A stretch of DNA of 58,892 nucleotides. It comes from a virus (taxonomy: Duplodnaviria; Caudoviricetes). A program made the translations under genes and the position numbers. A model generated the notes under the pieces. That model was not told the origin of the DNA. It was given only the letters and a program-made list of their open reading frames with translations, and did not search any database. This document shows positions 3,933 to 19,728 of the stretch, piece after piece. Location: positions 1 through 58,892 of the IMG/VR virus record IMGVR_UViG_3300007516_000020; one strand, given 5' to 3'. Numbering within the stretch: position 1 is the stretch's first letter; each line of letters opens with the position of its first letter.

Positions 3933-5390
3933 ATGAAGAAGCTGTTCGCCGCGATAGTATTTGCCATGACATTGGCATGTTTGCCATTGATGGCAGATGC
4001 AAAAGACCTATATGTTCGTGCCCTACCAGCCTGTGCCCTTTCGGGCAATGGATTCGAATATGGCTGTGCAACAGTCGCCGGTGGGGTGGGAGCTATTCGC
4101 GGAACCGCCGCAATCCCATGGGCAACCGTCGTGCCTAATGATAAAGTAATCATTTGTGGTGTACATGAAATCACTAATCCCGCGTTTCGAGTGACCCCTA
4201 CGGTCAGTGGAGCGTTAGGGAAGCCTATCACAATCACTGGTTCATGCGTGAATGATCCTGGTGTACTTGACGGTATGAACCATGCCGCTGGTATCCGTCT
4301 TATCAATCTTGGAAGTGCTGGACCTATCAATCATTTTGTGATTGATGGATTGTGGATCAGAAACGTACCCAATACCACTGACTATGCTCTTTCGGGTCAC
4401 GACAATGCAGCGGGCGGAGTTGTAGATCGTCATATCACAATTGTCAACAATCGATTCACCAACATCGGCTGGATTGGTATGTGGCTATGGGGATCAGAAT
4501 TCACGGTCGTGAATAACACTCTTGATGGTGTCGGCGACGATGCAATTTATGTGAAGGGCGGAAAGAATACTGTCATTGCTGGAAACAAAGTCATAAATGT
4601 CAGTACGAATGGTATTGGGGGAGATTGTATCCAATTCGATTCAGCGGCAACACAGGGCACGATTGGAACAGGTACCGTTATCGTGAGTGATAACCTCTGT
4701 GACAAACGCGGCGGCACGAATGTGAAGTATGGGGTATTAGTGGGACCAGTGACAGGATTGACCGTCATTGAAAATAACAAGATTTACTGCCCAGCACCTT
4801 CCACACTTCAGACAGCGTGTAGCCCAATCTACATCAATGCAGCGGGTACCGCAAAGACCGCACAAGTGATCATCCGAGGCAACTTCGTCTCAATGGGATG
4901 GAGAGGTATCACACTCGCAACCGCGGATAATCCTAATGTGCGCCATCATCTGACAGGTAACGTGATTGAGAAAGCAGGAACATTTGGTGTATGGCTGGAT
5001 GCAAACACCGATAATGTTGATGTCACCAACAATGTATTTGGACAGAATGCTGATGTGGGATTGTATCTTGGTAAAGTGTCAACCACCCATCGCATTGAGA
5101 ATAACATATTCTACGGAAACGCTAAGGGTATCTTCTACTTGAATGCCCCAAGTCGTGGACATAAGTATAATGACTTCTTTCAGAATAGCGTAGCGAATAT
5201 CACAGATTCGTCGGGACCAAAGGCTCTTGATGCAACCGACGTGACTATTGATCCCCAGTTTACATTCACAACGGATTGGAAGCTTCCAGCAGATTCGATC
5301 CTGCGTAATGTTGGACAACCATTGCCCCTTCTCTGTCTCGATAAGGTCTTAGGGTATTGCTGGACACCAGCGAACCTGGGCGCATACTAA
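3933..5390 (+). CDS. exported right-handed parallel beta-helix (pectin-lyase-like) protein
   Basis: Sec-type signal peptide MKKLFAAIVF...ADA; repeated xxNNxx beta-helix rungs; AGGAGG RBS. Confidence 0.75.
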   Translation: MKKLFAAIVFAMTLACLPLMADAKDLYVRALPACALSGNGFEYGCATVAGGVGAIRGTAAIPWATVVPNDKVIICGVHEITNPAFRVTPTVSGALGKPITITGSCVNDPGVLDGMNHAAGIRLINLGSAGPINHFVIDGLWIRNVPNTTDYALSGHDNAAGGVVDRHITIVNNRFTNIGWIGMWLWGSEFTVVNNTLDGVGDDAIYVKGGKNTVIAGNKVINVSTNGIGGDCIQFDSAATQGTIGTGTVIVSDNLCDKRGGTNVKYGVLVGPVTGLTVIENNKIYCPAPSTLQTACSPIYINAAGTAKTAQVIIRGNFVSMGWRGITLATADNPNVRHHLTGNVIEKAGTFGVWLDANTDNVDVTNNVFGQNADVGLYLGKVSTTHRIENNIFYGNAKGIFYLNAPSRGHKYNDFFQNSVANITDSSGPKALDATDVTIDPQFTFTTDWKLPADSILRNVGQPLPLLCLDKVLGYCWTPANLGAY

Positions 5391-5416
5391 GTTCGTCTTT
5401 ATTATGGGGTGATGTG

Positions 5417-5974
5417 ATGTTGCCAGAATTTGAGTCATTCAAGAAAATTCCCAGGCTCAGCCGTGTGTGTACCGTCACAGAAAAGCTGGACGGTACCAAC
5501 GGTCAGATCCTTATCACTGAGGATGGACTGTTATACGCTGGCAGCCATCGCCGCTGGCTCTTGACCCCCGAAGGGTTGGGTGAAGATAACCATGGATTCG
5601 GTCGCTGGGTGCTTGAGCACAAGGACGAACTCCTCCTAGGCCTGGGTATCGGTCGACACTACGGAGAGTGGTGGGGACAAGGTATACAGCGAAAGTATGG
5701 TTTGACTGAGAAACGATTCTCATTGTTCAATACGCATATGTGGGGCGACGAGACTGTCAGACCTGCTTGTTGCTCTGTGGTGCCTGTGTTGTACAAAGGA
5801 ATGTTCGATCAGATCATCATACAGGATTGCCTGAATGGTTTGGGGAAAAATGGAAGTGTGGCCTCCCCAGGATTCATGAAACCAGAGGGTGTTGTGATTT
5901 ACCACGAAGCGGCAAAGACATATTTCAAGAAGACTATCGAAGGGGACGAGAAACCCAAAGGGTCGCAAGAATGA
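5417..5974 (+). CDS. Rnl2-like ATP-dependent RNA ligase (adenylation domain)
   Basis: FxKIPRL, TEKLDGTN (motif I), YGEWWG, EGVVI. Confidence 0.8.
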   Translation: MLPEFESFKKIPRLSRVCTVTEKLDGTNGQILITEDGLLYAGSHRRWLLTPEGLGEDNHGFGRWVLEHKDELLLGLGIGRHYGEWWGQGIQRKYGLTEKRFSLFNTHMWGDETVRPACCSVVPVLYKGMFDQIIIQDCLNGLGKNGSVASPGFMKPEGVVIYHEAAKTYFKKTIEGDEKPKGSQE

Positions 5975-7242: not shown

Positions 7243-7283
7243 GTCCTCGTTACCCATCTCCCGGGTAACTGGGAAAGTCGAAG

Positions 7284-7317
7284 AAAGCCAGGGAGAAATC
7301 TCTGGCTTTTTGTTTTT
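7284..7317 (+). terminator. intrinsic terminator/attenuator immediately before first tRNA
   Basis: 11-bp stem aaagccaggga/tctctggcttt, GAAA loop, U-tract. Confidence 0.8.
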
Positions 7318-7318
7318 C

Positions 7319-7392
7319 GGGGCCATCGTCCAATAGGAAGATAGCTGAATGGCATTCAGCAGACGAGGGGGCGGTACCCTCTGGCTCCACCA
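7319..7392 (+). tRNA. tRNA-Ala(GGC)
   Basis: cloverleaf, G3:U70, CCA; T-loop GGCGGTA. Confidence 0.85.
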
Positions 7393-7399
7393 CAAATAT

Positions 7400-7475
7400 G
7401 CGCTGGTACTCTAACTAGCAAGGGGCCCACCCGATAAGTGGGAATATGTGAGTGCAAATCTCACCCGGCGCACCA
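7400..7475 (+). tRNA. tRNA-Ile(GAT), C33
   Basis: cccac-cc GAT aa-gtggg; CCA. Confidence 0.85.
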
Positions 7476-7482
7476 AGCGTAT

Positions 7483-7556
7483 ATGGGATAAGTGTTACAG
7501 CAGCACAGTAGTCTCCAAAACTACGGGCGCAGGTGCGACTCCTGCATCCCATGCCA
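7483..7556 (+). tRNA. tRNA-Trp(CCA)
   Basis: gtagt-ct CCA aa-actac; G73 CCA. Confidence 0.9.
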
Positions 7557-7574
7557 AAAGAAGAGGAATGTATC

Positions 7575-8102
7575 ATGTTGTCAATGACTTTGTTACTCAA
7601 CACCACCTATGAACCTATCCAGGTCGTTGGTTGGCAGCGAGCGATTACCCTGTTGTTTCAGGGAAAGTGTGAAGTCCTTGAGGAACACGATGAAGAAATC
7701 CATTCGATTTCTTTCACGATGAAGATTCCTTCAGTACTCAGAATGTTGATGCCAGCAAGGATCAAGCGTAAGGTCCCAGTGAAGTTCACCAGGTTGAACA
7801 TCTTTACGCGAGACGGTTGGAAGTGTCAATACTGCGGCGACAAGTTTTCCAGCAATGAATTGACTTTCGACCATGTTGTTCCTGTGACTCAGGGTGGCCG
7901 TAAAAGTTGGGAAAACATCACGACCGCGTGCGTGGACTGTAACTCTCGGAAGGCTGGGCGTACTCCTCAGCAAGCAGGAATGAAGCTCTTGAAGAAGCCC
8001 AAGCAGCCTATGTGGTCACAAGTAATCACTGTTACCGCGGGGCTACGAAAGACCCCTGATAACTGGGCATCATACTTGTACTGGAATGTTGAGCTGACAT
8101 AA
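7575..8102 (+). CDS. HNH endonuclease (McrA-like)
   Basis: RDGWKCQYCG, TFDHVVP, WENITTACVDCNSRK. Confidence 0.9.
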   Translation: MLSMTLLLNTTYEPIQVVGWQRAITLLFQGKCEVLEEHDEEIHSISFTMKIPSVLRMLMPARIKRKVPVKFTRLNIFTRDGWKCQYCGDKFSSNELTFDHVVPVTQGGRKSWENITTACVDCNSRKAGRTPQQAGMKLLKKPKQPMWSQVITVTAGLRKTPDNWASYLYWNVELT

Positions 8103-8107
8103 ATCCT

Positions 8108-8197
8108 GTGGAGTGGTGTAAACACCAAGCACGATAAACGCAGAGGGGAAGACCCTCAAATGCGGGATAAGTAGGAGTCTAGAAATCTCCTCTCCAC
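8108..8197 (+). ncRNA. tRNA-like structured RNA without CCA
   Basis: gtggag/ctccac closing stem plus three hairpins. Confidence 0.45.
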
Positions 8198-8209
8198 TGA
8201 AAATAGTTC

Positions 8210-8238
8210 TTGACAAACGGTTCGGAATTTGTTATAGT
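8210..8238 (+). promoter_or_regulatory. sigma70-type promoter
   Basis: TTGACA-17-TATAGT. Confidence 0.7.
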
Positions 8239-8267
8239 AAGAGAGTGAGATAAGAAATTGAGAGTTT

Positions 8268-8343
8268 GCCGCTGTGAGTCAGATAGTTGATTGCCTCTCT
8301 TGTAAGGAGGATTAGGCTGGTGCAAGTCCAGTCAGCGGCTCCA
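8268..8343 (+). tRNA. tRNA-Thr(TGT)
   Basis: cctct-ct TGT aa-ggagg; CCA. Confidence 0.88.
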
Positions 8344-8560
8344 TTGTTGATAGGCAATCCAACGTAGTGTTGGATGGGACGCCAGGGAAAGTGCCACGTG
8401 CAACTCTTTCCCAGTCAGCGGCTCCATTGTTGATAGGCAATCCAACGTAGTGTTGGATGGGACGCCAGGGAAAGTGCCACGTGCAACTCTTTTCCGGTCA
8501 GCGGCTCCATTGTTGATAGGCAAACCAACGTAGTGTTGGATGGGACGCCAGGGAAAGTGC
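8331..8560 (+). repeat. 83-bp tandem repeat (about 2.8 copies) beginning with the tRNA-Thr 3' end
   Basis: gtcagcggctccattgttgatagg starts at 8331, 8414, 8497. Confidence 0.92.
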
Positions 8561-8653
8561 AACTCTTTCAGACCCTATCGAATAGCGCGGAAATGGGTGT
8601 AGCGCGATACAAATAGCCCGTACATTTTCCTCTTGAGAAACAGAGGATCGATT

Positions 8654-8728
8654 GTGATCGTAGCATAAGTAGTAATGCGCTAGTTTGTGGCACTAGTTAA
8701 GAGGGTGCAAGTCCCTTCGATCACCCCA
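8654..8728 (+). tRNA. tRNA-His(GTG)
   Basis: ctagt-tt GTG gc-actag; C73; -1 base is T. Confidence 0.88.
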
Positions 8729-8758
8729 TAGCCAATCATGACGATTGGCACGAAGCAT

Positions 8759-8808
8759 GATAGCATCCACCTGAGACGTGGACTGTGAGCAACAGGGAAA
8801 CTGCTATC
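8759..8808 (+). ncRNA. unidentified three-way-junction RNA with CTGAGAC loop
   Basis: gatagca/tgctatc, tccac/gtgga, ctgt/acag. Confidence 0.4.
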
Positions 8809-8815
8809 GATATAC

Positions 8816-8891
8816 GGGCCCTTAGCTCATTCAGGAGAGCGCCGCACTTGCAATGCGGAGGTGGTCGGAGCAAAGCCGACAGGGTCCACCA
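8816..8891 (+). tRNA. tRNA-Ala(TGC)
   Basis: ccgca-ct TGC aa-tgcgg; G3:U70. Confidence 0.9.
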
Positions 8892-8950
8892 TAAAGTCCT
8901 GGTAGGGATTTAGAAGGCAGAATATCGGGACCAGAATTTTGAGAAAATAT

Positions 8951-9025
8951 CTAGGTGTGGGTCAATGGCAGACCACTCGGTTTGGGGCCGAGACCATGCA
9001 GGTTCGAGTCCTGTCACCTAGACCA
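8951..9025 (+). tRNA. tRNA-Pro(TGG)
   Basis: ctcgg-tt TGG gg-ccgag; C1:G72. Confidence 0.92.
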
Positions 9026-9097
9026 CTAACTCGGCACAATCGCTATTGTGCGATGCCCCCACGGTTCGGTGGGGTTAGAGTGCCGGCACTAAAATAC

Positions 9098-9172
9098 GCT
9101 CCCATCGAATACTGGCTAGTTCATCTGGCTTTCAACCAGAAAAAGAGAGATCGATACTCTCTGGGAGCACCA
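9098..9172 (+). tRNA. tRNA-Glu(TTC)
   Basis: tctgg-ct TTC aa-ccaga. Confidence 0.88.
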
Positions 9173-9183
9173 TTAGAATAGAC

Positions 9184-9261
9184 GCCGGCGTGAAGGGAAT
9201 TGGTATACCTGTTTGGTCGAGAGCCAGACGCTTGTGGGTTCGACTCCCACCGACGGCACCA
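9184..9261 (+). tRNA. tRNA-Leu(GAG), short variable loop, C33
   Basis: tttgg-tc GAG ag-ccaga; Leu-type D-loop GGTATAC; A73; one acceptor mismatch. Confidence 0.7.
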
Positions 9262-9271
9262 AAAGAATTAT

Positions 9272-9347
9272 AGCGGGTGGATGGGGATAGTTCTCCTATT
9301 GGGCTCATAACCCGATGTCCGTAGTGCAATTCTACGACCCGCAACCA
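9272..9347 (+). tRNA. initiator tRNA-fMet(CAT)
   Basis: three G:C pairs in anticodon stem; 1:72 mismatch. Confidence 0.85.
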
Positions 9348-9355
9348 CATAGTAC

Positions 9356-9429
9356 TGCGGTAAGCACAAGCGTAGCAGAACGATTTCATAAGTCGTTTCT
9401 AGAGGGTGCGACTCCCTCTACCGCAACCA
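9356..9429 (+). tRNA. tRNA-Met(CAT) elongator (Ile2 not excluded)
   Basis: acgat-tt CAT aa-gtcgt; weak D-stem. Confidence 0.75.
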
Positions 9430-9436
9430 ACTTTGT

Positions 9437-9513
9437 GCGCCTGTAGCCCAACGGCAGGAGGCGACGGTCTTAGAAGCCGTACAGTACAGGTTCAAATCCT
9501 GTCAGGCGCACCA
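9437..9513 (+). tRNA. tRNA-Leu(TAG), short variable loop
   Basis: acggt-ct TAG aa-gccgt. Confidence 0.88.
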
Positions 9514-9525
9514 TAATAGAATTAT

Positions 9526-9600
9526 GGGTTGCAAGCTTTCAAAGTGAAGCTCCCGGCTTTTAACCGGAGGAACTCGGCGCGATACCGAGGCGACCCACCA
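9526..9600 (+). tRNA. tRNA-Lys(TTT)
   Basis: ccgg-ct TTT aa-ccgg; T-loop CGCGATA. Confidence 0.85.
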
Positions 9601-9673
9601 ACGAATTGCTCAGTGTACGAGTCAATGGAAGTTGTTTTGATGTCTTTGACTCAGATACGAAGCACGAATTTAG

Positions 9674-9740
9674 CGAGGCTCTACAATTACTGAGACACCG
9701 TAGAGCGTAAAGGGAAATGGAGTTAGTAATTTCCCCCTCG
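9674..9740 (+). ncRNA. unidentified junction RNA with CTGAGAC-containing loop
   Basis: cgag/ctcg, gctctac/gtagagc, gggaaat/atttccc. Confidence 0.4.
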
Positions 9741-9749
9741 TAAAGTCAC

Positions 9750-9839
9750 GCACCCGCGCCTTGATAGGCAGAGGGGCCTTATAAGCCCGTCGCTCTAGAT
9801 CAGAGCCTTGACTGGGTTTGATTCCCAGCGGGTGTACCA
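9750..9839 (+). tRNA. non-canonical long-variable-arm tRNA with UAU anticodon (allo-tRNA-like)
   Basis: gggc-ct TAT aa-gccc; V-arm gctct/agagc; 4-nt D-loop; folds as 7/5 or 8/4; CCA. Confidence 0.75.
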
Positions 9840-9859
9840 TACATATAAAGGGGATGCTC

Positions 9860-10072
9860 ATGAAGGTCAAGGACAGAAACTTAAAAGTTTTGGTCGATGT
9901 AGCCGAGAAAGGTTGTCAGGGGTTCAAGTGCTACTGGCCGCGCCCAGACCCAGGCGTCTTCACTCAAGGCTCTGGATATCGGTCCCGCGACCCATCTGGC
10001 AAAACCAAGCCCGGTTGGTTGTGCGGCACCCGAGAAATACGTGGTTGCCCGGACAATCCTGTACCACGATAG
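9860..10072 (+). CDS. small Cys-containing hypothetical protein
   Basis: AAGGGG RBS; part of ORF 9818..10072. Confidence 0.5.
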   Translation: MKVKDRNLKVLVDVAEKGCQGFKCYWPRPDPGVFTQGSGYRSRDPSGKTKPGWLCGTREIRGCPDNPVPR

Positions 10073-10145
10073 ATGACCCGAAACACAGGGATTCTGGTGT
10101 ACACAAGTGTACACATTAGAATTCTCTAATGTTGAAGAAAAGCCC

Positions 10146-10173
10146 TTGACTTATTTCCTCGTTATGCTATAAT
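10146..10173 (+). promoter_or_regulatory. sigma70-type promoter
   Basis: TTGACT-16-TATAAT with TGn. Confidence 0.7.
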
Positions 10174-10186
10174 TAGAGCATAGGGA

Positions 10187-10402
10187 ATGGAGAACAAGAT
10201 GACTGAGAACAAAAATAGGAACATCATCATTGCCCAGTTCACCAACCACGATGATGCAATGACCGCATTCGTTGTTGAGTCGTTTCTAGGTGGATACGGT
10301 GTCTCCCTTCGCGACGACGACTCCGGCGAGTTCGTCGGATTCGCGATCCACGGCATCAAGAGCTTAGGGACCGCGATTGCTAAGGCGAAGGAAGTGCTTT
10401 AA
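10187..10402 (+). CDS. hypothetical protein
   Basis: promoter upstream; start 10187 or 10199. Confidence 0.65.
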   Translation: MENKMTENKNRNIIIAQFTNHDDAMTAFVVESFLGGYGVSLRDDDSGEFVGFAIHGIKSLGTAIAKAKEVL

Positions 10403-10462
10403 ATAAGGCTTGTATTAGTGATAACGTAGTCTATAGTGTTTTCAACGCAAAGGAGACTTATA

Positions 10463-10738
10463 ATGGAAATGTCAGAGCATGAATTGGTGACGGTCTCGAC
10501 GCCTGGTGGGGACCTACATTATCGCCTGCACGATGGCGAGATTGTTCAACAATGGGTCGAGGGAGAGGGAGAGTGGGTGGATCAAACCAGTAGTGGGCCG
10601 AAAGATGAAGTGGCATTGACCCAACTCTCGGTGACTCCTGGCCATGTATTTTACGCGACGAGGTTCGGGGAACGGTGGCAGTGGGTTCAGACGACAGAAC
10701 AGTGGATGATGGTCACCGGCAAACATATTTCGGCGTGA
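10463..10738 (+). CDS. hypothetical protein
   Basis: AAGGAG RBS. Confidence 0.65.
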   Translation: MEMSEHELVTVSTPGGDLHYRLHDGEIVQQWVEGEGEWVDQTSSGPKDEVALTQLSVTPGHVFYATRFGERWQWVQTTEQWMMVTGKHISA

Positions 10739-10752
10739 AGAGACTCAATAAC

Positions 10753-10836
10753 GGAGGTATAGTCTCGTACGGCGCGAGGGCTGGCTGTAAACCAGTTGTT
10801 AATACCCAGAGGGTTCGATTCCTTCTACCTCCACCA
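10753..10836 (+). tRNA. tRNA-Tyr(GTA)
   Basis: gctgg-ct GTA aa-ccagt. Confidence 0.88.
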
Positions 10837-10845
10837 TAATGCCAA

Positions 10846-10929
10846 TAGTCACTGTGAAGAGACTCAAGAGTAGTAGCATACCGCGGGGAAGGCATGGGGG
10901 AGGACCTGGTTCAATTCCAGGCATGACTA
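10846..10929 (+). ncRNA. tRNA-like RNA or pseudo-tRNA with intact T-arm, no CCA
   Basis: tagtca/tgacta closing stem; cctgg-ttcaatt-ccagg. Confidence 0.45.
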
Positions 10930-11060
10930 CATAAGATCAGATATCTTGTAGGCATATAAGATGTACAGCGTGTAGGCATACAAGCTGTGTGGCGTGTACA
11001 GCCGTGATCGGAGTAGTCATGGAGTATGATGGATTGTATACCCCTGTATTTTGGAGTCAG

Positions 11061-11204
11061 ATGAAAGTTTACAAGAAGAAGCGCCGAAGTTGCCCAATGT
11101 GCAAACCAAATAAGATGGGGATAGAGCCCTGTTGGACAGCGAAGGATCTTGATAGACTGAAGCGAATGGAAAAGGAAGCGAGAGAAATAAAGAGAACAGA
11201 TTAG
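11061..11204 (+). CDS. small basic protein with CxxC (RSCPMCKP)
   Basis: GGAG RBS; 3' part of ORF 10989..11204. Confidence 0.5.
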   Translation: MKVYKKKRRSCPMCKPNKMGIEPCWTAKDLDRLKRMEKEAREIKRTD

Positions 11205-11210
11205 AAATAT

Positions 11211-11286
11211 GCACTCGGAGCCTGTAGGATGGGCGCTTGATTGTCAATCAAGAATAAAGCGGGATCGTTACCCGTCGAGTGCGCCA
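11211..11286 (+). tRNA. tRNA-Asp(GTC)
   Basis: cttga-tt GTC aa-tcaag; G73. Confidence 0.85.
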
Positions 11287-11290
11287 TGAT

Positions 11291-11364
11291 GTCGATGTAG
11301 CCAAGGGGATTGGCACCGGTCTGCAAAACCGTTTACGTTGGTTCGATTCCAACCATCGACTCCA
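11291..11364 (+). tRNA. tRNA-Cys(GCA)
   Basis: cggt-ct GCA aa-accg; U73. Confidence 0.9.
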
Positions 11365-11372
11365 TACAATAC

Positions 11373-11447
11373 GCACTGCAAGCATTAGTGGTGATGCTTC
11401 CGGCTCTTAACCGGAAGAACCGAGTTCGACTCTCGGGCGGTGCACCA
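11373..11447 (+). tRNA. tRNA-Lys(CTT)
   Basis: tccgg-ct CTT aa-ccgga. Confidence 0.9.
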
Positions 11448-11450
11448 TAT

Positions 11451-11524
11451 AGGGATATCGTCTAATAGCAAGACAACAGGCTTTGAACCTGTGAACCTAG
11501 GGGCGGTACCTAGTATCCCTTCCA
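11451..11524 (+). tRNA. tRNA-Gln(TTG)
   Basis: acagg-ct TTG aa-cctgt; T-loop GGCGGTA. Confidence 0.85.
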
Positions 11525-11535
11525 TAGAGGTTATC

Positions 11536-12048
11536 ATGACAGTCTTTTTGACAGCGGATACACATTTCGGCCACGCGGGTATCTGTACATTCTTGAATGC
11601 AGATGGAACGAAAGTGCGACCCTGGACTGATGTTGCCGAGATGGATGAAGAGTTGGTCAAGCGGTGGAATGAAGTCGTAAAGCCAACAGACAAAGTGTAT
11701 CACCTGGGCGATGTGGTGATCAGCCGAAAGGCACTAGCGATCCTGGGTCGTTTGAATGGGGACAAGGTACTTATCAAGGGAAATCATGACATCTTCAAGG
11801 TGTCTGACTATCTGAAGTATTTTCGTGATATCCGTAGTTACCATGTGACGGATAAGCTGATTTTATCGCATATCCCTATTCACCCCGATAGCAAAGGTCG
11901 CTTTCGTGGAAATGTTCATGGACACTTGCATGGGCGAGCATTAGAGGATACGTGGTATCAGTGTGTATGTGTTGAGCATACAGATTATCGACCAATTGCT
12001 TTTGAGGAGATTCAAAGAAGGACTAACAAAGGAATTATTGCGGATTAG
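11536..12048 (+). CDS. calcineurin-like metallophosphoesterase
   Basis: DTHFGH, HLGDV, KGNHD, SHIP, HGHLH; stop lies inside next tRNA. Confidence 0.9.
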   Translation: MTVFLTADTHFGHAGICTFLNADGTKVRPWTDVAEMDEELVKRWNEVVKPTDKVYHLGDVVISRKALAILGRLNGDKVLIKGNHDIFKVSDYLKYFRDIRSYHVTDKLILSHIPIHPDSKGRFRGNVHGHLHGRALEDTWYQCVCVEHTDYRPIAFEEIQRRTNKGIIAD

Positions 12049-12112
12049 CCAAACGGCCAGGCAGTGGACTCTGAATCCACCTAACAAGGTTCGACTCCTT
12101 GATCCGCAACCA
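12039..12112 (+). tRNA. tRNA-Gln(CTG)
   Basis: gtgga-ct CTG aa-tccac; U1:A72. Confidence 0.9.
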
Positions 12113-12129
12113 AATATCGCAGAATGTAT

Positions 12130-12207
12130 TCCGGTCTAGCATTCAGGGTGAGTGCGCTCCGCTGTTAACGGAGAACGAGCCAGGTTCGATCCCTGGGACC
12201 GGAGCCA
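12130..12207 (+). tRNA. tRNA-Asn(GTT)
   Basis: ctccg-ct GTT aa-cggag; G73. Confidence 0.9.
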
Positions 12208-12211
12208 ACAT

Positions 12212-12285
12212 GCTCCTATAGCACAATGGTAGTGCGACCGCCTGAAGAGCGGTACACCGAGGTTCGATTCCTCGTGGGAGCGCCA
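12212..12285 (+). tRNA. tRNA-Phe(GAA)
   Basis: accgc-ct GAA ga-gcggt. Confidence 0.88.
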
Positions 12286-12292
12286 AGAGAAT

Positions 12293-12367
12293 GCGGGTGT
12301 GGCAGAATGGTTTTGCACTTCCTTGCCAAGGAAGACTACGCGGGTTCGATCCCCGCCACCCGCTCCA
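12293..12367 (+). tRNA. tRNA-Gly(GCC)
   Basis: cttcc-tt GCC aa-ggaag; U73. Confidence 0.92.
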
Positions 12368-12544
12368 TTAGAGATCCAGGGCGTAGGAAAGTCGCCCCTC
12401 AAGAAACAATAGAGAAAATTCGACAAGGTGTTTTGAAATATAATGCGGGTTTGGTATAGAAGCTGTGCCTCAGCCTTCCAAGCTGAAGAGGCCGTTGCGA
12501 GTACGGCAACCCGCTCCATTAGAGATCCAGGGCGTAGGAAAGTC
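12358..12544 (+). repeat. 36-bp direct repeat (12358-12393 and 12509-12544): Gly 3' end, spacer, Pro 5' end
   Basis: acccgctccattagagatccagggcgtaggaaagtc twice. Confidence 0.9.
12445..12518 (+). tRNA. tRNA-Gly(TCC)
   Basis: tcagc-ct TCC aa-gctga; U73. Confidence 0.85.
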
Positions 12545-12605
12545 TGGTTGATCCTCTCCCCTCGGAAGGGAGAAATCGGTGGTTCAAATCCACCCGCCCT
12601 GACCA
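12528..12605 (+). tRNA. tRNA-Pro(CGG)
   Basis: ctccc-ct CGG aa-gggag; C1:G72; A37. Confidence 0.9.
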
Positions 12606-12634
12606 AAATGAGTGCTTGACATTGATATACTATT

Positions 12635-12709
12635 GCCCTGTAAGACTAGAAAGCGAGTTGCCTGTTTCGTAAGCAGGAGAGAACGATGCAAGTTCGTTAC
12701 GGGGCTCCA
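12635..12709 (+). tRNA. tRNA-Thr(CGT)
   Basis: cctgt-tt CGT aa-gcagg. Confidence 0.82.
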
Positions 12710-12715
12710 TTATAT

Positions 12716-12792
12716 GCTGGTGTAGACCAAGGGCAGAGTCACCAAACTTAAAATCTGGACAAGTGCAGGTTCGATTCCTGTCACCAGCACCA
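12716..12792 (+). tRNA. tRNA-Leu(TAA), short variable loop
   Basis: ccaaa-ct TAA aa-tctgg. Confidence 0.82.
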
Positions 12793-12796
12793 ATAC

Positions 12797-12873
12797 GCCG
12801 AAGTGATGCAACTGGCAGACATGGCTGATTCAAAACCAGTCTCTTGTGGGTTCGACTCCCACCTTCGGCACCA
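12797..12873 (+). tRNA. tRNA-Leu(CAA), short variable loop
   Basis: gctga-tt CAA aa-ccagt; GGCAGAC D-loop. Confidence 0.82.
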
Positions 12874-12918
12874 ATGCGTAGATTAGAGTAGGTTTTCTCC
12901 GCAAAATAGAAAGGAAAA

Positions 12919-13198
12919 TAGGACAACTAAACCATCACAAGTCTTACGACTTGAGGAACTTCGGGACACCAAGAACAGGACAGTGGCTAACGACCACCCA
13001 GAGTAATCTGAGGATTAGAGCCACAGTGACGATGCCGCGCAAGCGGAGTGAAACGAGCAATCTCTGTCCGGTGCAACTCCAAATAGGCTGGTGTGCTGTT
13101 CGCACAAGACCCAGCGGGTAGGAGGCTTGAGGGTATCAGTAATGATACTCCTAGAGAAATGATGGTTCACGACAGAATCCCGGGTATCGGTTGTCCTA
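12919..13198 (+). ncRNA. rnpB: RNase P RNA, compact bacterial type A
   Basis: P1 taggacaac/gttgtccta; P2 aaccatca/tgatggtt; GAGGAACTTCGGGA pairs with ACAGAATCCCGGGT (P4); GCCACAG; GTGAAACG; CAAATAGG; CGGGTAG; P6 gaaca/tgttc; P18. Confidence 0.92.
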
Positions 13199-13206
13199 CA
13201 ATTTAC

Positions 13207-13281
13207 GCCCTCAAAGAATAGATAGCGATTCGCCACCTTGGTAAGGTGGATAGACCGGCGCAAGTCCGGTTGAGGGCTCCA
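13207..13281 (+). tRNA. tRNA-Thr(GGT)
   Basis: ccacc-tt GGT aa-ggtgg. Confidence 0.87.
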
Positions 13282-13289
13282 TGAAATAC

Positions 13290-13364
13290 GCACCGCGAGC
13301 CGGTTGAATAGGCACCTGCCCTACAAGCAGATTCAAAGAGGTTTGATTCCTCTGCGGTGCACCA
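13290..13364 (+). tRNA. tRNA-Val(TAC), C33
   Basis: ctgc-cc TAC aa-gcag. Confidence 0.82.
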
Positions 13365-13441
13365 TGAGGTTGCAATGACACGCAACCAGACCGAAGTGTT
13401 ACTAGAAGATATGTTTCAGTGCGCGGCCGTAAAGAAATAAT

Positions 13442-13518
13442 GTCCCTGTGGTCCAGATGGAAAAGACGCCTCCCTGCGAAGGAGGAGATCGGTGGTTCAA
13501 GTCCACCCAGGGACACCA
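13442..13518 (+). tRNA. tRNA-Arg(GCG)
   Basis: cctcc-ct GCG aa-ggagg; A20. Confidence 0.88.
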
Positions 13519-13643
13519 TAAGAAAGGAACGTGATTGGACGTTCCTATTTTGATCGGGGATCTATGTTTGCTTTTACATTGCTGTTCTTATATGAGTTTT
13601 TTCTGTTTAGGCAAGCAGCAAAGTACTACGGTATGAAATAGAG

Positions 13644-13731
13644 GGAAGATTGGCAGAGAGGCCTATTGCGCTGGTTTGCTAAACCATGCGGGGTAACACC
13701 CACGAAGGTTCGAATCCTTCATCTTCCGCCA
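13644..13731 (+). tRNA. tRNA-Ser(GCT)
   Basis: long V-arm, G73, tt GCT aa. Confidence 0.92.
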
Positions 13732-13737
13732 TGTTTT

Positions 13738-13825
13738 GGAAGGTTCACCGGACAGGCGCGCCGGGACCGTCTCGAAAGCGGATCGAGGGTAACACCTTGG
13801 GGATCAAGACCTCAGCCTTCCGCCA
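13738..13825 (+). tRNA. tRNA-Ser(CGA)
   Basis: long V-arm, G73, ct CGA aa. Confidence 0.85.
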
Positions 13826-13842
13826 TTGTTATGAAAGGATAT

Positions 13843-14196
13843 ATGTCTCTTTTTGATGTTCTTGGTAATCCTAATAAGACTCCTGTCATATCCGCGGCCG
13901 TGGAATTGTACGCTGAGAGGTTGGAGGAACAAAATCATCGAGTGAAGATATTCGACACACCAAAGGGATTGTGTATGTCGTGTTACATGTCGCACATTTA
14001 TCGGTCACCGAAACTCGAAGGTGGGAACTGGCATATCACTTGTACGGTTCCCAAAGGACCATCACTCATTATGCCCGACGATATCTCTTACTGCAATCGC
14101 TTCGAGAAGAAGGGTGAACAGACACTTGATGATATGAAGCGGGTAGCAAGACTCATTGAAAAAGAAGATGGGAAAAAGGTTGGATTCACGGCATAA
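13843..14196 (+). CDS. hypothetical protein with CxxC (possible Zn-binding)
   Basis: AAGGA RBS; 3' part of ORF 13666..14196. Confidence 0.65.
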   Translation: MSLFDVLGNPNKTPVISAAVELYAERLEEQNHRVKIFDTPKGLCMSCYMSHIYRSPKLEGGNWHITCTVPKGPSLIMPDDISYCNRFEKKGEQTLDDMKRVARLIEKEDGKKVGFTA

Positions 14197-14199
14197 TAT

Positions 14200-14287
14200 G
14201 GAAGAGTGACCGAGAGGCTAATGGTGCTCGCTTGGAAAGCGATGCGGTGTAACAGCCACGCAGGTTCAAATCCTGTCTCTTCCGCCA
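14200..14287 (+). tRNA. tRNA-Ser(GGA)
   Basis: long V-arm, G73, tt GGA aa. Confidence 0.92.
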
Positions 14288-14297
14288 TAATTAGTGC

Positions 14298-14326
14298 TTG
14301 ACATTCTTAGTCAGTTTGTGTATAAT
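14298..14326 (+). promoter_or_regulatory. consensus sigma70 promoter abutting tRNA-Ser(TGA)
   Basis: TTGACA-17-TATAAT. Confidence 0.7.
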
Positions 14327-14327
14327 T

Positions 14328-14417
14328 GGAAGTGTAATCAGGCGAGCGTACTGGGACCGCCTTGAAAGCGGATCGGCGGTGAAAGCCGTTGGGGTGCAAG
14401 TCCTCACACTTCCGCCA
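14328..14417 (+). tRNA. tRNA-Ser(TGA)
   Basis: long V-arm, G73, ct TGA aa. Confidence 0.87.
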
Positions 14418-14750
14418 TTTTATATGAAGGATGTGTTGTGTCTAATCTATTGTGGCTAGCCCTGGGTCTGTTGGTATGGTGTAAGAGGAAACCCATGTTG
14501 AAATTGAAATTTGAATTGTCCGATGAGGACTGGAAAAAGGTTAATCGGTTCATACGAAAACAGGACAAGCTCACTGGCACCGGCGCAAATTATGGAGCGA
14601 TTGGTGGAGGTTATACCTACCAATTTACACCTACCTCGTTGGGGGTCATAGTCAAAGTTGAGAATTGTGTGACAAAGGCATCCATCAATCTGACAGATTT
14701 TGATAGCTGGTAACAGCGTTGGGGTGCAAGTCCTCACACTTCCGCCATTT
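14387..14750 (+). repeat. 34-bp direct repeat of tRNA-Ser 3' end (14387-14420, 14717-14750) flanking one ORF
   Basis: cgttggggtgcaagtcctcacacttccgccattt twice. Confidence 0.92.
14495..14713 (+). CDS. conserved phage hypothetical protein (GAIGGGYTYQFTPTSLG)
   Basis: GAGG RBS; motif common in phage ORFs. Confidence 0.7.
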   Translation: MLKLKFELSDEDWKKVNRFIRKQDKLTGTGANYGAIGGGYTYQFTPTSLGVIVKVENCVTKASINLTDFDSW

Positions 14751-14811
14751 GGATAATTATGGAAGTTGTAGTCACATCGGGGTTGTGGTTTGAGAGATAG
14801 AATCATAATTT

Positions 14812-15155
14812 GGGGGTGAATTAGGTATCGACAGAGGCGTATAGAGAAGAACGGACATGCCGTGGACCAGGACCACGTAAATACTTGGAAAAACCAGAAA
14901 TGCCGAACAAGAGTTTGCATTAGCGGCATAAACGCCGCTCTCTGAAAGACCAAGAGGCTCCTGTAGGTCTGGAAGGGTCATTCATTGGAGGCACAGTGAT
15001 AAAGGCTAGCATGGTAGAGTGTTAGCTGAGTGTCAATCTACCACAGATCATATAAGGTGTCAGTCCCTTATGTGAGCGTTGTAAGACTGACTAGCATGGA
15101 ATATCCACTTTGACGTTGCTTTTGGACCCGGGTGCAACTCCCGGCACCTCCACCA
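14812..15155 (+). ncRNA. ssrA: tmRNA; tag reading frame 14902-14931 encodes AEQEFALAA*
   Basis: GGGGGTG/CACCTCC-ACCA with G3:U; 5' GGTATCGAC; 3' GGACCCGGGTGCAACTCCCGG; ALAA-ending tag. Confidence 0.95.
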
Positions 15156-15238
15156 ATTCATTCGCTCGACTGCCATGTGTAGGAAATGGGCATACGAGAG
15201 GGACCCTCAAGACTTCAGATTGGGGTCCCAGCTTTTAC

Positions 15239-15312
15239 GCTCCCATAGATTATTAGTAGATCGCTGGATTCTCAATCCAGAGAGCCGGGGGCAGTACCCG
15301 GTGGGAGCACCA
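15239..15312 (+). tRNA. tRNA-Glu(CTC)
   Basis: ctgga-tt CTC aa-tccag. Confidence 0.87.
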
Positions 15313-15318
15313 AAATAT

Positions 15319-15394
15319 GTCCCTGTGGGCCAACTGAAAGGTCACCCGCCTTCTAAGCGGGATTATGCGAGTTTGAGTCTCGCCGGGGACACCA
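15319..15394 (+). tRNA. tRNA-Arg(TCT)
   Basis: cccgc-ct TCT aa-gcggg. Confidence 0.87.
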
Positions 15395-15463
15395 AAGTAT
15401 ATTATGAGATTGACAGAAATCAAGCGCGAATTCAGAGGTTCAAACTGGAATGAAAGAATAAAC

Positions 15464-15538
15464 GCCGCTGTAGCCTAGTGTACAGGCACCTGCCTCCTAA
15501 GCGGGATAACGTGGGTTAGATTCCCACCAGTGGCACCA
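15464..15538 (+). tRNA. tRNA-Arg(CCT)
   Basis: cctgc-ct CCT aa-gcggg. Confidence 0.87.
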
Positions 15539-15544
15539 CATAAC

Positions 15545-15622
15545 CTCCCTGTGATGGCAATTGGACGCCGACCGCGCTTCGAACGCGGGATTATGTAGGT
15601 TCGAATCCTATCAGGGAGACCA
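15545..15622 (+). tRNA. tRNA-Arg(TCG)
   Basis: ccgcg-ct TCG aa-cgcgg. Confidence 0.85.
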
Positions 15623-15626
15623 TTAC

Positions 15627-15700
15627 AGACCCTTAGTACATTAGCAGTATCCCGCCCCGACACGGCGGAGAGGACAGGGCAGAACTGTCAGGGTCTACCA
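15627..15700 (+). tRNA. tRNA-Val(GAC), C33
   Basis: ccgcc-cc GAC ac-ggcgg. Confidence 0.82.
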
Positions 15701-15703
15701 TAT

Positions 15704-15780
15704 CGGACCGTAAACTTTAACTAGATGAGTGCCTGGCTTAAGCCAGGAAAACGAGGCGCGCTTCCTCGGCGGTCCGGCCA
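15704..15780 (+). tRNA. aberrant tRNA: 8-bp acceptor stem, 6-nt anticodon loop CTTAAG, CCA end
   Basis: cggaccgt/gcggtccg-G-CCA; cctgg/ccagg; cgagg/cctcg. Confidence 0.6.
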
Positions 15781-17221: not shown

Positions 17222-17250
17222 TTGACAACGTGCCTAGACTCTGTTATACT
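17222..17250 (+). promoter_or_regulatory. sigma70-type promoter
   Basis: TTGACA-17-TATACT with TGn. Confidence 0.75.
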
Positions 17251-17256
17251 TATAAC

Positions 17257-18195
17257 ATGATGAGAACACACATAGTGAATATGGTTTTCGGTTCCCACCT
17301 CTACGGCACGTCAAGCCCTTTGTCCGATAAGGACTACAAGGGCGTCTTTGTGCCTACCACCGACGAAATGCTATTGGGAAGATTCCCTAAGTCTATCAAT
17401 GAGTCCACGAAACTAAACTCAGGCGAAAAGAACACCGCCGCTGACACAGATAAGGAAACGTATTCCCTTCACTACTTCTTGGAATTGGCCAGGAAGGGTG
17501 AGACTGTGGCACTTGATATGCTTCATGCTCCAAAATCAGCGTGGGTGTCGCATAGCTGGCATTGGGAATATCTTGTTGCCAACAGACAAAAATTCTACAC
17601 CAAAAACCTTTCATCCTTGGTTGGTTATGCGCGGAAGCAATCGGCAAAGTATGGGGTGAAGGGAAGTAGACTTGCGGAAGCTAAGACTGTGTTGTCGCTT
17701 CTTGAAGCTACATTCTCAGGGGTCAAGGTGTCTGATATTGTGACACTTCTTCCTGTGGGTGAGCATTGTGGTATGATGACTGGGAATGGGGTCACGTTCT
17801 ATCAAGTGTGTGGAAAGAAATTGACTCTCAATGCCCTTGCTTCTCACTATGTCCCTATGATGGAAAAGTTTGTCAAGGAATATGGGGATCGGGCGAAGCA
17901 AGCAGAGGCGAACATGGGTGTGGACTGGAAAGCTGTGAGCCATGCTTTTCGTGCCGCCTATCAAGTTCGTGCGATCTTGCGAGATGGGGATTTCACCTAT
18001 CCATTATCTGAGACTGAGTTTATTCGTGCGGTGAAGTCGGGTACGCTGAACTTCAAGACTGAAGTGGGACCTAAGCTTGATGAACTGATGGATGAAGTTG
18101 AAAAACTATCCTCAGAATCAACTCTTCCCGAAGAAGTGAGTGGTGAGTTTGTTGATGCGGTGCTGTTGCACCTTGTAAAGAATACGGAGTTATAA
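17257..18195 (+). CDS. Pol-beta-superfamily nucleotidyltransferase (RlaP / T4 NrdC.11-like)
   Basis: FGSHLYGTSSPLSDKDYKG; DWKAVSHAFR. Confidence 0.8.
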   Translation: MMRTHIVNMVFGSHLYGTSSPLSDKDYKGVFVPTTDEMLLGRFPKSINESTKLNSGEKNTAADTDKETYSLHYFLELARKGETVALDMLHAPKSAWVSHSWHWEYLVANRQKFYTKNLSSLVGYARKQSAKYGVKGSRLAEAKTVLSLLEATFSGVKVSDIVTLLPVGEHCGMMTGNGVTFYQVCGKKLTLNALASHYVPMMEKFVKEYGDRAKQAEANMGVDWKAVSHAFRAAYQVRAILRDGDFTYPLSETEFIRAVKSGTLNFKTEVGPKLDELMDEVEKLSSESTLPEEVSGEFVDAVLLHLVKNTEL

Positions 18196-19526: not shown

Positions 19527-19728
19527 AAGTTACTTCCCCATTCCCTTTGACCGATGGTATACCGAGAATCTGCCTGATATTCGTCGTGAGTTTAGCAAAG
19601 ATGGTCTGGATAAATTGAGGAATAGTCCAGAAAAGTTTGCTGCCTTGTTATACACTCTCAGGGTGGAGCACGATCAGAAGCGATGGACCAATTACTTGCA
19701 GTTTGTTGAGGATAATTATGTCGTATAA
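19516..19728 (+). CDS. hypothetical protein
   Basis: overlapping operon spacing. Confidence 0.55.
   Translation: MLTKSYFPIPFDRWYTENLPDIRREFSKDGLDKLRNSPEKFAALLYTLRVEHDQKRWTNYLQFVEDNYVV

Follow-up and report, generated by a model that had tools for sequence, protein, structure and literature searches.

The tRNA array and its detection

The window analysed here, meaning the whole 58,892-bp stretch of the single IMG/VR virus record IMGVR_UViG_3300007516_000020 (estimated to be about 35% complete), carries on its plus strand, at positions 7319-15700, an array of 42 co-oriented RNA genes: 40 tRNA genes, a transfer-messenger RNA (tmRNA) and an RNase P RNA (Table 1). The 39 distinct anticodons cover all 20 amino acids, and only CAT is present twice. 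CCA is encoded after the discriminator base in all 40 tRNAs, the T stem is fully paired (5/5) in every one of them, and the acceptor stem has seven of seven pairs in 38 and six of seven in two. An initial annotation made from the sequence alone had described such an array, with 40 co-oriented CCA-encoding tRNAs for all 20 amino acids, no repeated anticodon except CAT, a tmRNA, an RNase P RNA, an HNH nuclease and a phosphoesterase. This inventory is upheld by ARAGORN, Rfam, Pfam and PHROG matches and a cloverleaf scan, as is the accompanying idea of a complete or near-complete decoding set. Only the array end was misplaced, at 15780 instead of 15700.

Recovery of the set depended strongly on the method. 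Default ARAGORN reports 27 tRNAs and the tmRNA, and Rfam at its gathering score (29 bits for tRNA) reports 25 tRNAs, the tmRNA and RNaseP_bact_a, to which its E-value mode adds two tRNAs of at least 29 bits and one at 27.5 bits. Combined, these standard tools yield 30 tRNAs (31 with the sub-threshold one), with no Thr or Val tRNA among them, so that the ARAGORN and Rfam check suggested at the outset confirms 30 of the 40 at standard settings and leaves ten to relaxed settings or a custom scan. Nine of these ten are reported by no standard tool, and the tenth is the 27.5-bit CAT tRNA at 9356. Relaxed ARAGORN adds Val-TAC, Ser-CGA, Lys-TTT and the element at 9750; its calls of Gly-CCC at 9068, Arg-CCG, a 'Gln' at 14661, a permuted tmRNA and a '???' were dropped as overlapping or minus-strand. 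A custom cloverleaf scan lifts the total to 40, and as a control, at the same threshold, it yields six hits over the remainder of the window, both strands included, all of which lack both a 7/7 acceptor stem and CCA. The 59- to 125-nt gaps of the array, inspected for hidden tRNAs, contain hairpins but no cloverleaf with CCA.

Two related phages, designated G002 and G051, provide further support. Anticodons recur there in the same order with differing stem letters (34 tRNAs in G002, 32 in G051), the cloverleaves being kept by compensatory change. A same-anticodon orthologue exists in G002 for nine of the ten hard-to-detect tRNAs, five of which are called there by default ARAGORN; for Ser-CGA, no orthologue was found in G002 or G051.

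By plain wobble rules, and on our own reasoning, the set would read 59 of the 61 sense codons, with CCU and CCC requiring tRNA-Pro(UGG) to read its whole box. Such breadth bears on the classical and most accepted explanation of phage tRNAs (PMC10264068), namely that they offset a codon mismatch between phage and host or adapt the phage to its host range, in which case the RNase P RNA and tmRNA would be passengers. The G+C content of the phage (45-51%) fits this explanation insofar as its nearest cultured relatives infect low-G+C streamlined hosts. Instead of a biased subset, however, the array offers a single tRNA for each anticodon in almost all codon boxes, and a conserved ribozyme would be left unexplained, so we regard codon adaptation as a decidedly unlikely principal cause.

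The phage, its relatives and their environment

The window belongs to a T4-like myophage, as judged from a gp6-like baseplate wedge protein (best matches Pelagibacter phage HTVC008M, 40% identity, and Methylophilales phage Melnitz, 36%), homologues of gp32 and gp59, further baseplate and tail families and a prohead protease. G051, found by a pattern scan and carrying RNase P RNA, tmRNA and tRNA array, is 168,076 bp long with direct terminal repeats and is rated 100% complete; a metagenome copy, L179, is identical to G002. It is therefore reasonable to suppose, with moderate confidence and jointly with the functional reading proposed below, that the window holds the tRNA gene region of a freshwater T4-like myophage of about 168 kb. 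Between 67 and 96% of the words sampled from the locus are present in three freshwater metagenome runs, one of which may be the source sample of the window assembly. Contigs of these runs (X1 12515-14416; X2 12515-12956 and 13136-13701; X3 12515-13035) span tRNAs and RNase P RNA and bridge their junctions, so that the arrangement is no assembly chimera.

In the same runs, contig depth jumps about ten-fold at window 10159-10860 and 12265-12615, with a peak of 403x on a 101-nt contig at 10496-10602, and part of that DNA is apparently common to far more abundant organisms or phages in these samples. Megablast of the array against the phage collection found no close relative, and a distant search matched scattered tRNAs only. 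A wider comparison was obtained through the phosphoesterase of the array, which has 244 relatives in viral contigs; 80 loci were taken for comparison, and 59 of them have at least five tRNAs. The closest of these relatives, L002, ends short of the expected RNase P site and is uninformative on the ribozyme.

A reduced RNase P RNA with a conserved core

The RNase P RNA, 284 nt long, matches RF00010 over the whole model (positions 1-367) at 180.7 bits against a cut-off of 100. Its orthologues in G002 (312 nt, 192.2 bits) and G051 (330 nt, 191.1 bits) stand in the same place, the order Leu-CAA / RNase P / Thr-GGT / Val-TAC / Arg-GCG being common to all three phages. In the Rfam alignments helices P1-P5, P7-P12 and P15-P18 are present, J5/15 reads AAAUAGG, and the L15 sequence CGGGUA aligns to CGGGUa of the model, that is, to the GGU pairing with the tRNA 3' CCA. 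The P4 pseudoknot has eight pairs, 100% paired in the three sequences, with an unpaired bulged U at alignment column 46. P13/P14 are missing from all three: in the window 23 nt stand for 81 model positions and P12 is a 4-bp hairpin, and G002 and G051 have just 0-3 nt where the P13/P14 block takes up 43-46 positions of the model. Compared with the bacterial type-A RNA described by the 367-position RF00010 model, the phage form is thus shorter and lies in a viral genome without rnpA. Archaeal type-A RNAs also lack P13/P14 according to a review (PMC4919922); the phage RNA keeps P18.

Covariation supports the predicted structure. In the three-sequence alignment, 26 of 78 predicted pairs have changed on both sides and yet remain paired, compared with 9.3 +/- 2.4 in column shuffles (0 of 500 reach 26) and 0-3 with slid partners. 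Compensated pairs include 6/10 in P1, 3/8 in P4 and 5/5 in the P5/P7 stack, and the tested helices coincide with Rfam consensus helices. Even in P4, where the letters differ from the bacterial consensus, the differences are compensated. On comparative grounds, the phage RNase P RNA is shown to keep an intact catalytic core (P4 with its bulged U, the L15 GGU and P15-P18) and to evolve under selection for structure.

The P4 pattern of the clade also informs on origin. When searched in one genome per species across 185,579 species, it turned up 44 times, always by chance and never in an RNase P RNA, and a blast search of the RNase P RNA against 401 Pseudomonadota genomes matched seven, at best with 70% identity over 238 nt. 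No donor was therefore found among these 401 genomes, where the seven matches are weak and partial (other phyla were not searched). With no RNase P RNA of this pattern in the cellular genomes searched and only weak matches in the Pseudomonadota sample, the phage RNA is not a recent host capture. The same pattern gave 86 metagenome matches, of which only two are real, being copies of G002 and G051; a match in L150, a short viral contig, arose by chance.

An RNase P-like RNA that merely soaks up host RnpA, or a captured host gene in decay, could also present lost P13/P14, a shrunken P12 and altered P4 letters, and the RNase P-like RNA of one poxvirus is indeed reported as inactive in vitro (PMC3001073). 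That RNA is likewise virus-encoded, but it comes from a eukaryotic virus, shows structural resemblance only, did not cleave pre-tRNA in vitro and has no tRNA context (PMC3001073). In the phage RNA, P1, P4, P5/7 and P15/16 have stayed paired across three lineages through compensatory changes, and the substrate-binding parts (the L15 GGU, P8-P11 and J11/12), needless for a decoy, are kept. Together with the search results above, which offer no cellular source for a decaying copy, this makes a decoy or dead gene most improbable.

Dependence on host proteins

The tmRNA matches RF00023 at 119.3 bits (cut-off 47), and its tag frame ends in ALAA. Searches for RnpA (PF00825) and SmpB (PF01668) were negative in all three records (the window, G002 and the complete G051), the controls being positive in 10 of 14 reference genomes for RnpA and 12 of 14 for SmpB. 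Accordingly, both ribozyme and tmRNA must draw on proteins of the host. The module cannot be called self-contained, as the initial annotation had it; its ribozyme for 5' maturation and its ribosome-rescue RNA are real and conserved, but the protein partners of both are not encoded. Since bacterial RnpA proteins are interchangeable between species according to the review cited above (PMC4919922), a chimeric holoenzyme of phage RNA and host RnpA is plausible. The phage tRNAs, in turn, presumably depend on host synthetases (synthetases and EF-Tu were not searched for).

Precursor processing and transcription signals

The array is densely packed, with 21 of 41 spacers at most 12 nt long. Pyrimidines make up 45% of this region. 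At -1, immediately ahead of the mature 5' end, 24 of the 41 tRNA and tmRNA genes have T, 16 have C and one has G, and a hand count places A at -2 in 32 of 41 leaders. A uridine at -1 is the preferred context of RNase P. The ribozyme itself ends 4 nt ahead of tRNA-Thr(GGU) in the window and 5 nt ahead of it in G002 and G051, so that a cut at the 5' end of this tRNA would also trim the 3' end of the ribozyme. Such proximity extends beyond the clade: among the 16 assessable RNase P RNAs of phage arrays (this clade included), 11 end at most 7 nt ahead of a co-oriented tRNA. Separating polycistronic pre-tRNAs is described as the essential job of RNase P in Escherichia coli (PMC7049720).

Promoter-like sites number 27, compared with 12.9 +/- 3.4 expected, and strong plus-strand sites lie at 8210, 10146 and 14298. 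The array probably comprises several early transcription units.

Unusual tRNAs and a possible link to the ribozyme

At T-loop position 55, G takes the place of U in sixteen of the 40 tRNAs, most of which have AG for GG in the D loop. Across 106 tRNAs of the three phages, GG is missing from the D loop in 24 of 38 G55 tRNAs and in 4 of 68 U55 tRNAs (Fisher p = 2e-10), and several apparent exceptions to the association read AGG. Orthologues switch both elbow states together (Trp, Thr-CGT, Glu-CTC, Lys-CTT and others), a mark of true tertiary covariation in which an A18:G55 elbow replaces G18:U55.

About a third of the tRNAs in G002 and G051 are of the G55 type, as are 7 of 18 in L002, compared with 0-8% in 31 related arrays without a ribozyme. 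Two unrelated RNase P-bearing arrays, L104 (7/26) and L129 (3/5), are rich in G55 as well, and a phage RNase P RNA is present in all five assessable G55-rich arrays. It is conceivable, then, that the RNase P RNA co-evolved with odd tRNAs (those with A18:G55, the short-arm tRNA-Leu and the long-arm UAU tRNA) that the host enzyme processes poorly. However, the window, G002 and G051 form one clade, which leaves few independent events, and L104 and L129 were chosen for having RNase P. Among the other 14 RNase P-bearing loci, some of which hold very few tRNAs, ten have no G55 tRNA and two have one each; because these 12 have few G55 tRNAs or none, unlike L104 and L129, the link between G55 and the ribozyme is only suggestive. 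The L129 ribozyme is full length, so that S-domain reduction does not track G55. In addition, RNase P stacks on the outer G19:C56 pair, which G55 tRNAs keep. We consider a ribozyme specialised for these tRNAs unlikely.

Other departures from the usual tRNA form were noted. The long-arm UAU tRNA at 9750-9839 is kept in relatives (L003 2698-2786; L002 12064-12153), where it is called Ile-tat, and has discriminator A; as its body looks class II (Leu- or Tyr-like), the amino acid it brings to AUA codons is uncertain. All four tRNA-Leu (9184, 9437, 12716 and 12797) have variable regions of 5-6 nt instead of the usual bacterial long arm. Arg-GCG (13442-13518), in the place of the ACG tRNA of bacteria, is combined with Arg-UCG (15545-15622), there being no ACG in the set, and AUA is served by the UAU tRNA. 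A UAU tRNA together with Arg-GCG and Arg-UCG would remove the need for TilS and TadA. C33 stands for the near-universal U33 in four of the 40 tRNAs (Ile-GAT 7400, Leu-GAG 9184, Val-TAC 13290 and Val-GAC 15627), and that of Leu-GAG is conserved in G002 and G051.

RNase P RNA in other viral arrays

A generic type-A P4 pattern drew 62 IMG/VR contigs, and RF00010 matched 38 of the 49 records searched. Those with high scores (about 255-328 bits) are mostly proviruses or short contigs that have no tRNA close by, and they look like host DNA. In 14 of the 38, the RNase P RNA lies inside a dense tRNA array, on contigs up to a 463-kb record rated complete, with ribozymes often 269-330 nt long. The L104 ribozyme lacks P12-P14 and P18; that of L129, as noted, is not reduced. 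An RNase P RNA within a phage tRNA array is thus a recurrent feature, which arose or was reduced more than once. In another phage (L122), a GOLLD RNA (RF02032, 191.6 bits) lies at 7430-7900 within a 35-tRNA array, which also has a 204-nt sub-threshold RNase P-like match (46.4 bits).

Blastn searches of two other phage-type RNase P RNAs against cultured phages left one without a match and led the other to the Microcystis phage MaAM05 record (L287, MW495066.1 111320-119472). We did not count this RNase P-like stretch as a phage ribozyme, because it lies amid fabI, engB, mtgA and glyS with no tRNA array and the region looks bacterial. We found no phage-encoded RNase P RNA described in the literature outside supplementary tables, where one may be listed, and RNase P has no mention in the main texts, supplements aside, of the huge-phage paper (PMC7162821) and the L-array paper (PMC8421152).

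Protein genes in and around the array

Two protein genes lie among the RNA genes. The HNH gene, whose reading frame is given from 7533, probably has its true start past the tRNA, and the family match of the metallophosphoesterase begins at residue 29. A second metallophosphoesterase gene (window 27347-28006, PF00149 41 bits) lies outside the array, amid replication and structural genes. Upstream of the array is an RNA ligase gene; downstream are an RlaP-family nucleotidyltransferase gene, an ATP-dependent ligase that is probably the phage DNA ligase, and an RtcB gene, found at the same relative place in all three phages. RNA-repair genes on both flanks fit a link to tRNA damage.

This setting invites the reading of the locus as a counter-defence kit, in which the tRNAs would replace host tRNAs cut by anticodon nucleases, the ligases would mend them, and the ribozyme and tmRNA would sustain supply. 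There are documented cases of phage tRNAs evading defences that cut tRNAs (PMC10264068, PMC11555353, PMC12409363), RNA ligase, RlaP and RtcB flank the array (RtcB in synteny in 3/3 phages), and the tRNAs depart from the host-like consensus (C33 in 4/40, G55 in 16/40, no A34 tRNA). An anti-tRNase role of the array is plausible. Against it, no nuclease, host or defence system is known for the window phage, a set of 40 tRNAs far exceeds the need of any known single defence, and nothing ties the RNase P RNA to a known defence target; the rtcB-linked array of Anabaena is described as responding to general translational stress (PMC8421152). The counter-defence account overlaps the reading that we favour but names defence as the selective force, and as such it is possible, though we hold it only tentatively.

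Table 1. RNA genes, transcription signals and protein genes in and around the array (window positions).
Feature	Position	Strand	Evidence and remarks
RNA ligase gene, upstream flank	5357..5974	+	PF09414 51.7 bits (cut-off 27); phrog_548; present in G051 too
Terminator-like hairpin	7282..7311	+	13-pair stem then T run; just ahead of first tRNA
tRNA-Ala GGC, G55 type	7319..7392	+	Rfam 38.3 bits; cloverleaf + CCA
tRNA-Ile GAT, G55 type, C33	7400..7475	+	ARAGORN, Rfam, cloverleaf scan
tRNA-Trp CCA, G55 type	7483..7556	+	ARAGORN, Rfam, cloverleaf scan
HNH endonuclease gene	7533..8102	+	PF01844 60.2 bits; phrog_16726 E 4e-40
Sigma-70-like promoter, 11/12	8210..8238	+	upstream of tRNA-Thr
tRNA-Thr TGT, G55 type	8268..8343	+	cloverleaf scan; ARAGORN-called orthologue L003 888-963
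tRNA-His GTG, G55 type	8654..8728	+	ARAGORN, Rfam, cloverleaf scan
tRNA-Ala TGC, G55 type	8816..8891	+	ARAGORN, Rfam, cloverleaf scan
tRNA-Pro TGG	8951..9025	+	ARAGORN, Rfam, cloverleaf scan
tRNA-Glu TTC	9098..9172	+	ARAGORN, Rfam, cloverleaf scan
tRNA-Leu GAG, short variable region, C33	9184..9261	+	ARAGORN, cloverleaf scan
tRNA CAT, initiator-like, G55 type	9272..9347	+	ARAGORN; 1:72 mismatch, three G-C pairs beside anticodon loop
Second tRNA CAT (elongator Met or Ile2), G55 type	9356..9429	+	Rfam 27.5 bits (cut-off 29); cloverleaf scan; fold z-score -3.4; G002 orthologue
tRNA-Leu TAG, short variable region	9437..9513	+	ARAGORN, Rfam, cloverleaf scan
tRNA-Lys TTT, G55 type	9526..9600	+	relaxed ARAGORN; cloverleaf scan; orthologues
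90-nt tRNA, long variable arm, anticodon TAT	9750..9839	+	relaxed ARAGORN; minimum-free-energy cloverleaf, z-score -4.16; orthologues
Sigma-70-like promoter, 11/12	10146..10173	+	
tRNA-Tyr GTA	10753..10836	+	ARAGORN, Rfam, cloverleaf scan
tRNA-Asp GTC	11211..11286	+	ARAGORN, Rfam E-value mode, cloverleaf scan
tRNA-Cys GCA	11291..11364	+	ARAGORN, Rfam, cloverleaf scan
tRNA-Lys CTT	11373..11447	+	ARAGORN, Rfam, cloverleaf scan
Metallophosphoesterase gene inside array	11440..12048	+	phrog_547 E 5e-51; PF12850 21.3 bits (below cut-off 27)
tRNA-Gln TTG, G55 type	11451..11524	+	Rfam 48.1 bits; cloverleaf scan
tRNA-Gln CTG	12039..12112	+	ARAGORN, Rfam, cloverleaf scan
tRNA-Asn GTT	12130..12207	+	ARAGORN, cloverleaf scan
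tRNA-Phe GAA	12212..12285	+	ARAGORN, Rfam, cloverleaf scan
tRNA-Gly GCC	12293..12367	+	ARAGORN, Rfam, cloverleaf scan
tRNA-Gly TCC, G55 type	12445..12518	+	ARAGORN, Rfam, cloverleaf scan
tRNA-Pro CGG	12528..12605	+	ARAGORN, Rfam, cloverleaf scan
tRNA-Thr CGT, G55 type	12635..12709	+	cloverleaf scan; orthologues
tRNA-Leu TAA, short variable region	12716..12792	+	ARAGORN, Rfam, cloverleaf scan
tRNA-Leu CAA, short variable region	12797..12873	+	ARAGORN, Rfam, cloverleaf scan
RNase P RNA, type A, without P13/P14, minimal P12	12919..13202	+	RF00010 180.7 bits; orthologues; covariation
tRNA-Thr GGT, G55 type	13207..13281	+	cloverleaf scan; same position in G002, G051; starts 4 nt past RNase P RNA
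tRNA-Val TAC, C33	13290..13364	+	relaxed ARAGORN; cloverleaf scan
tRNA-Arg GCG	13442..13518	+	ARAGORN, Rfam, cloverleaf scan
tRNA-Ser GCT	13644..13731	+	ARAGORN, Rfam, cloverleaf scan
tRNA-Ser CGA	13738..13825	+	relaxed ARAGORN; cloverleaf scan; blastn matches in tRNA regions of other phages
tRNA-Ser GGA	14200..14287	+	ARAGORN, Rfam, cloverleaf scan
Perfect sigma-70-like promoter, 12/12, TTGACA-17-TATAAT	14298..14326	+	ends 1 nt ahead of tRNA-Ser(TGA)
tRNA-Ser TGA, G55 type	14328..14417	+	cloverleaf scan; ARAGORN-called orthologue L003 6762-6851; fold alone not distinctive, z-score -1.2
One-piece tmRNA, tag AEQEFALAA	14812..15155	+	ARAGORN; RF00023 119.3 bits
tRNA-Glu CTC, G55 type	15239..15312	+	Rfam 49.6 bits; cloverleaf scan
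tRNA-Arg TCT	15319..15394	+	ARAGORN, Rfam, cloverleaf scan
tRNA-Arg CCT	15464..15538	+	ARAGORN, Rfam, cloverleaf scan
tRNA-Arg TCG	15545..15622	+	ARAGORN, Rfam E-value mode, cloverleaf scan
tRNA-Val GAC, G55 type, C33	15627..15700	+	cloverleaf scan; L003 orthologue at 8187, Rfam 45.9 bits
RlaP-family nucleotidyltransferase gene (RNA-repair associated)	17230..18195	+	PF10127 58 bits; phrog_388
ATP-dependent ligase gene	18197..19324	+	PF01068 43.3 bits
RtcB RNA ligase gene	19637..20908	+	PF01139 404.7 bits

Discussion

What stands out at this locus is a phage-owned RNase P RNA, within an otherwise known kind of phage translation-gene set. Phage T4 has 8 tRNAs, and their polycistronic precursors are processed wholly by host RNase P. 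The T4 cluster resembles the window array in its T4-like background and in the homing endonuclease (SegB) inside it (PMC8421152). Closer in organisation are the L-arrays, typified by the trn operon of Anabaena PCC 7120, which likewise hold dozens of co-oriented tRNAs (up to 43) and an HNH homing-endonuclease gene, with rtcB linked or co-regulated and RNA-processing genes nearby; the paper that describes them also notes similar bacteriophage arrangements (PMC8421152). With 40 tRNAs, HNH at 7533-8102 and RtcB at 19637-20908, the window array shows the L-array pattern as given there (PMC8421152), but it lies in a lytic T4-like phage and adds a tmRNA and an RNase P RNA. Sets of tRNA and tmRNA genes are likewise known from mycobacteriophages (PMC1475703), and huge phages are described with up to 67 tRNAs, tmRNAs and translation genes that can include SmpB, which the window lineage lacks (PMC7162821). 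The nearest cultured structural relatives, the Melnitz-like myophages, carry a tmRNA as the window phage does; Melnitz itself has four tRNAs and a two-piece tmRNA, in contrast to the 40 tRNAs and one-piece tmRNA found here (PMC9004378).

We propose, with moderate confidence, that the RNase P RNA of the phage associates with host RnpA and increases processing capacity for the phage's polycistronic tRNA precursors, and that the resulting full set sustains translation. In this model, (i) host RNA polymerase would transcribe the array from several sigma-70-like promoters into polycistronic precursors. (ii) The phage RNase P RNA would assemble with host RnpA, a partnership that we infer from the phage encoding none. 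The added ribozyme would multiply the capacity for 5'-end cutting while phage genome copies flood the cell with pre-tRNA, and the cut at the 5' end of tRNA-Thr would release the ribozyme's own 3' end. (iii) The released tRNAs would form a full decoding set, independent of the tRNA pool of the host, and may sidestep two essential host anticodon-editing steps, with Arg-GCG/UCG standing in for ACG and the UAU tRNA for lysidine-CAU. (iv) The tmRNA, with host SmpB, would free stalled ribosomes, and the flanking RNA ligase, RlaP and RtcB would repair cut RNAs. The benefit would lie in late translation that continues after a halt in host RNA synthesis or a loss of host tRNAs from any cause.

Several points weigh against this proposal. 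No more than three distinct sequences underlie the covariation, and they are also the ones from which the tested structure was predicted. Near-invariant bacterial P4 positions are changed, P13/P14 are absent and P12 of the window is only 4 bp, so that ribozyme activity and RnpA binding are assumptions. RF00010 matches only one of the 80 phosphoesterase-sharing records (G002), the other 79, many of them fragments, having no RNase P RNA; as many of these ribozyme-less relatives carry 20-30 tRNAs, large arrays evidently need no phage ribozyme, which makes the ribozyme an optional extra. A transcript from the perfect promoter at 14298-14326 would begin inside tRNA-Ser(TGA), which makes the transcript map uncertain. 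Finally, there is no RNA run among the sequence runs holding the locus, the matching runs being DNA contigs only.

A bolder version of the proposal holds that some large phages mature their tRNAs with a ribozyme of their own: a streamlined RNase P RNA, excising itself from between tRNAs and working on host RnpA, co-evolves with a host-independent tRNA set and is tuned to its own substrates. We regard this version as doubtful. If it is true, the phage would possess its decoding RNAs as well as the catalyst for making them, its A18:G55 elbow could not carry pseudouridine 55, TadA and TilS would be dispensable, and the short-arm tRNA-Leu would be part of the rebuilt set.

These findings have implications for the way phage translation genes are surveyed and understood. 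Default tRNA finders miss a quarter of the array, including every tRNA-Thr, and censuses of phage tRNAs are therefore likely to count too few tRNAs in such sets. The phage RNAs also offer natural minimal type-A ribozymes, 269-330 nt long, that presumably work with a foreign protein subunit and could serve research on how RNase P is built and selects its substrates. That they recur directly ahead of a tRNA suggests a simple means of self-release. RNase P RNA counts as a core gene of cells, and a conserved copy under structural constraint in complete phage genomes widens the translation functions of viruses from the substrates (tRNAs) to a catalyst for their production.

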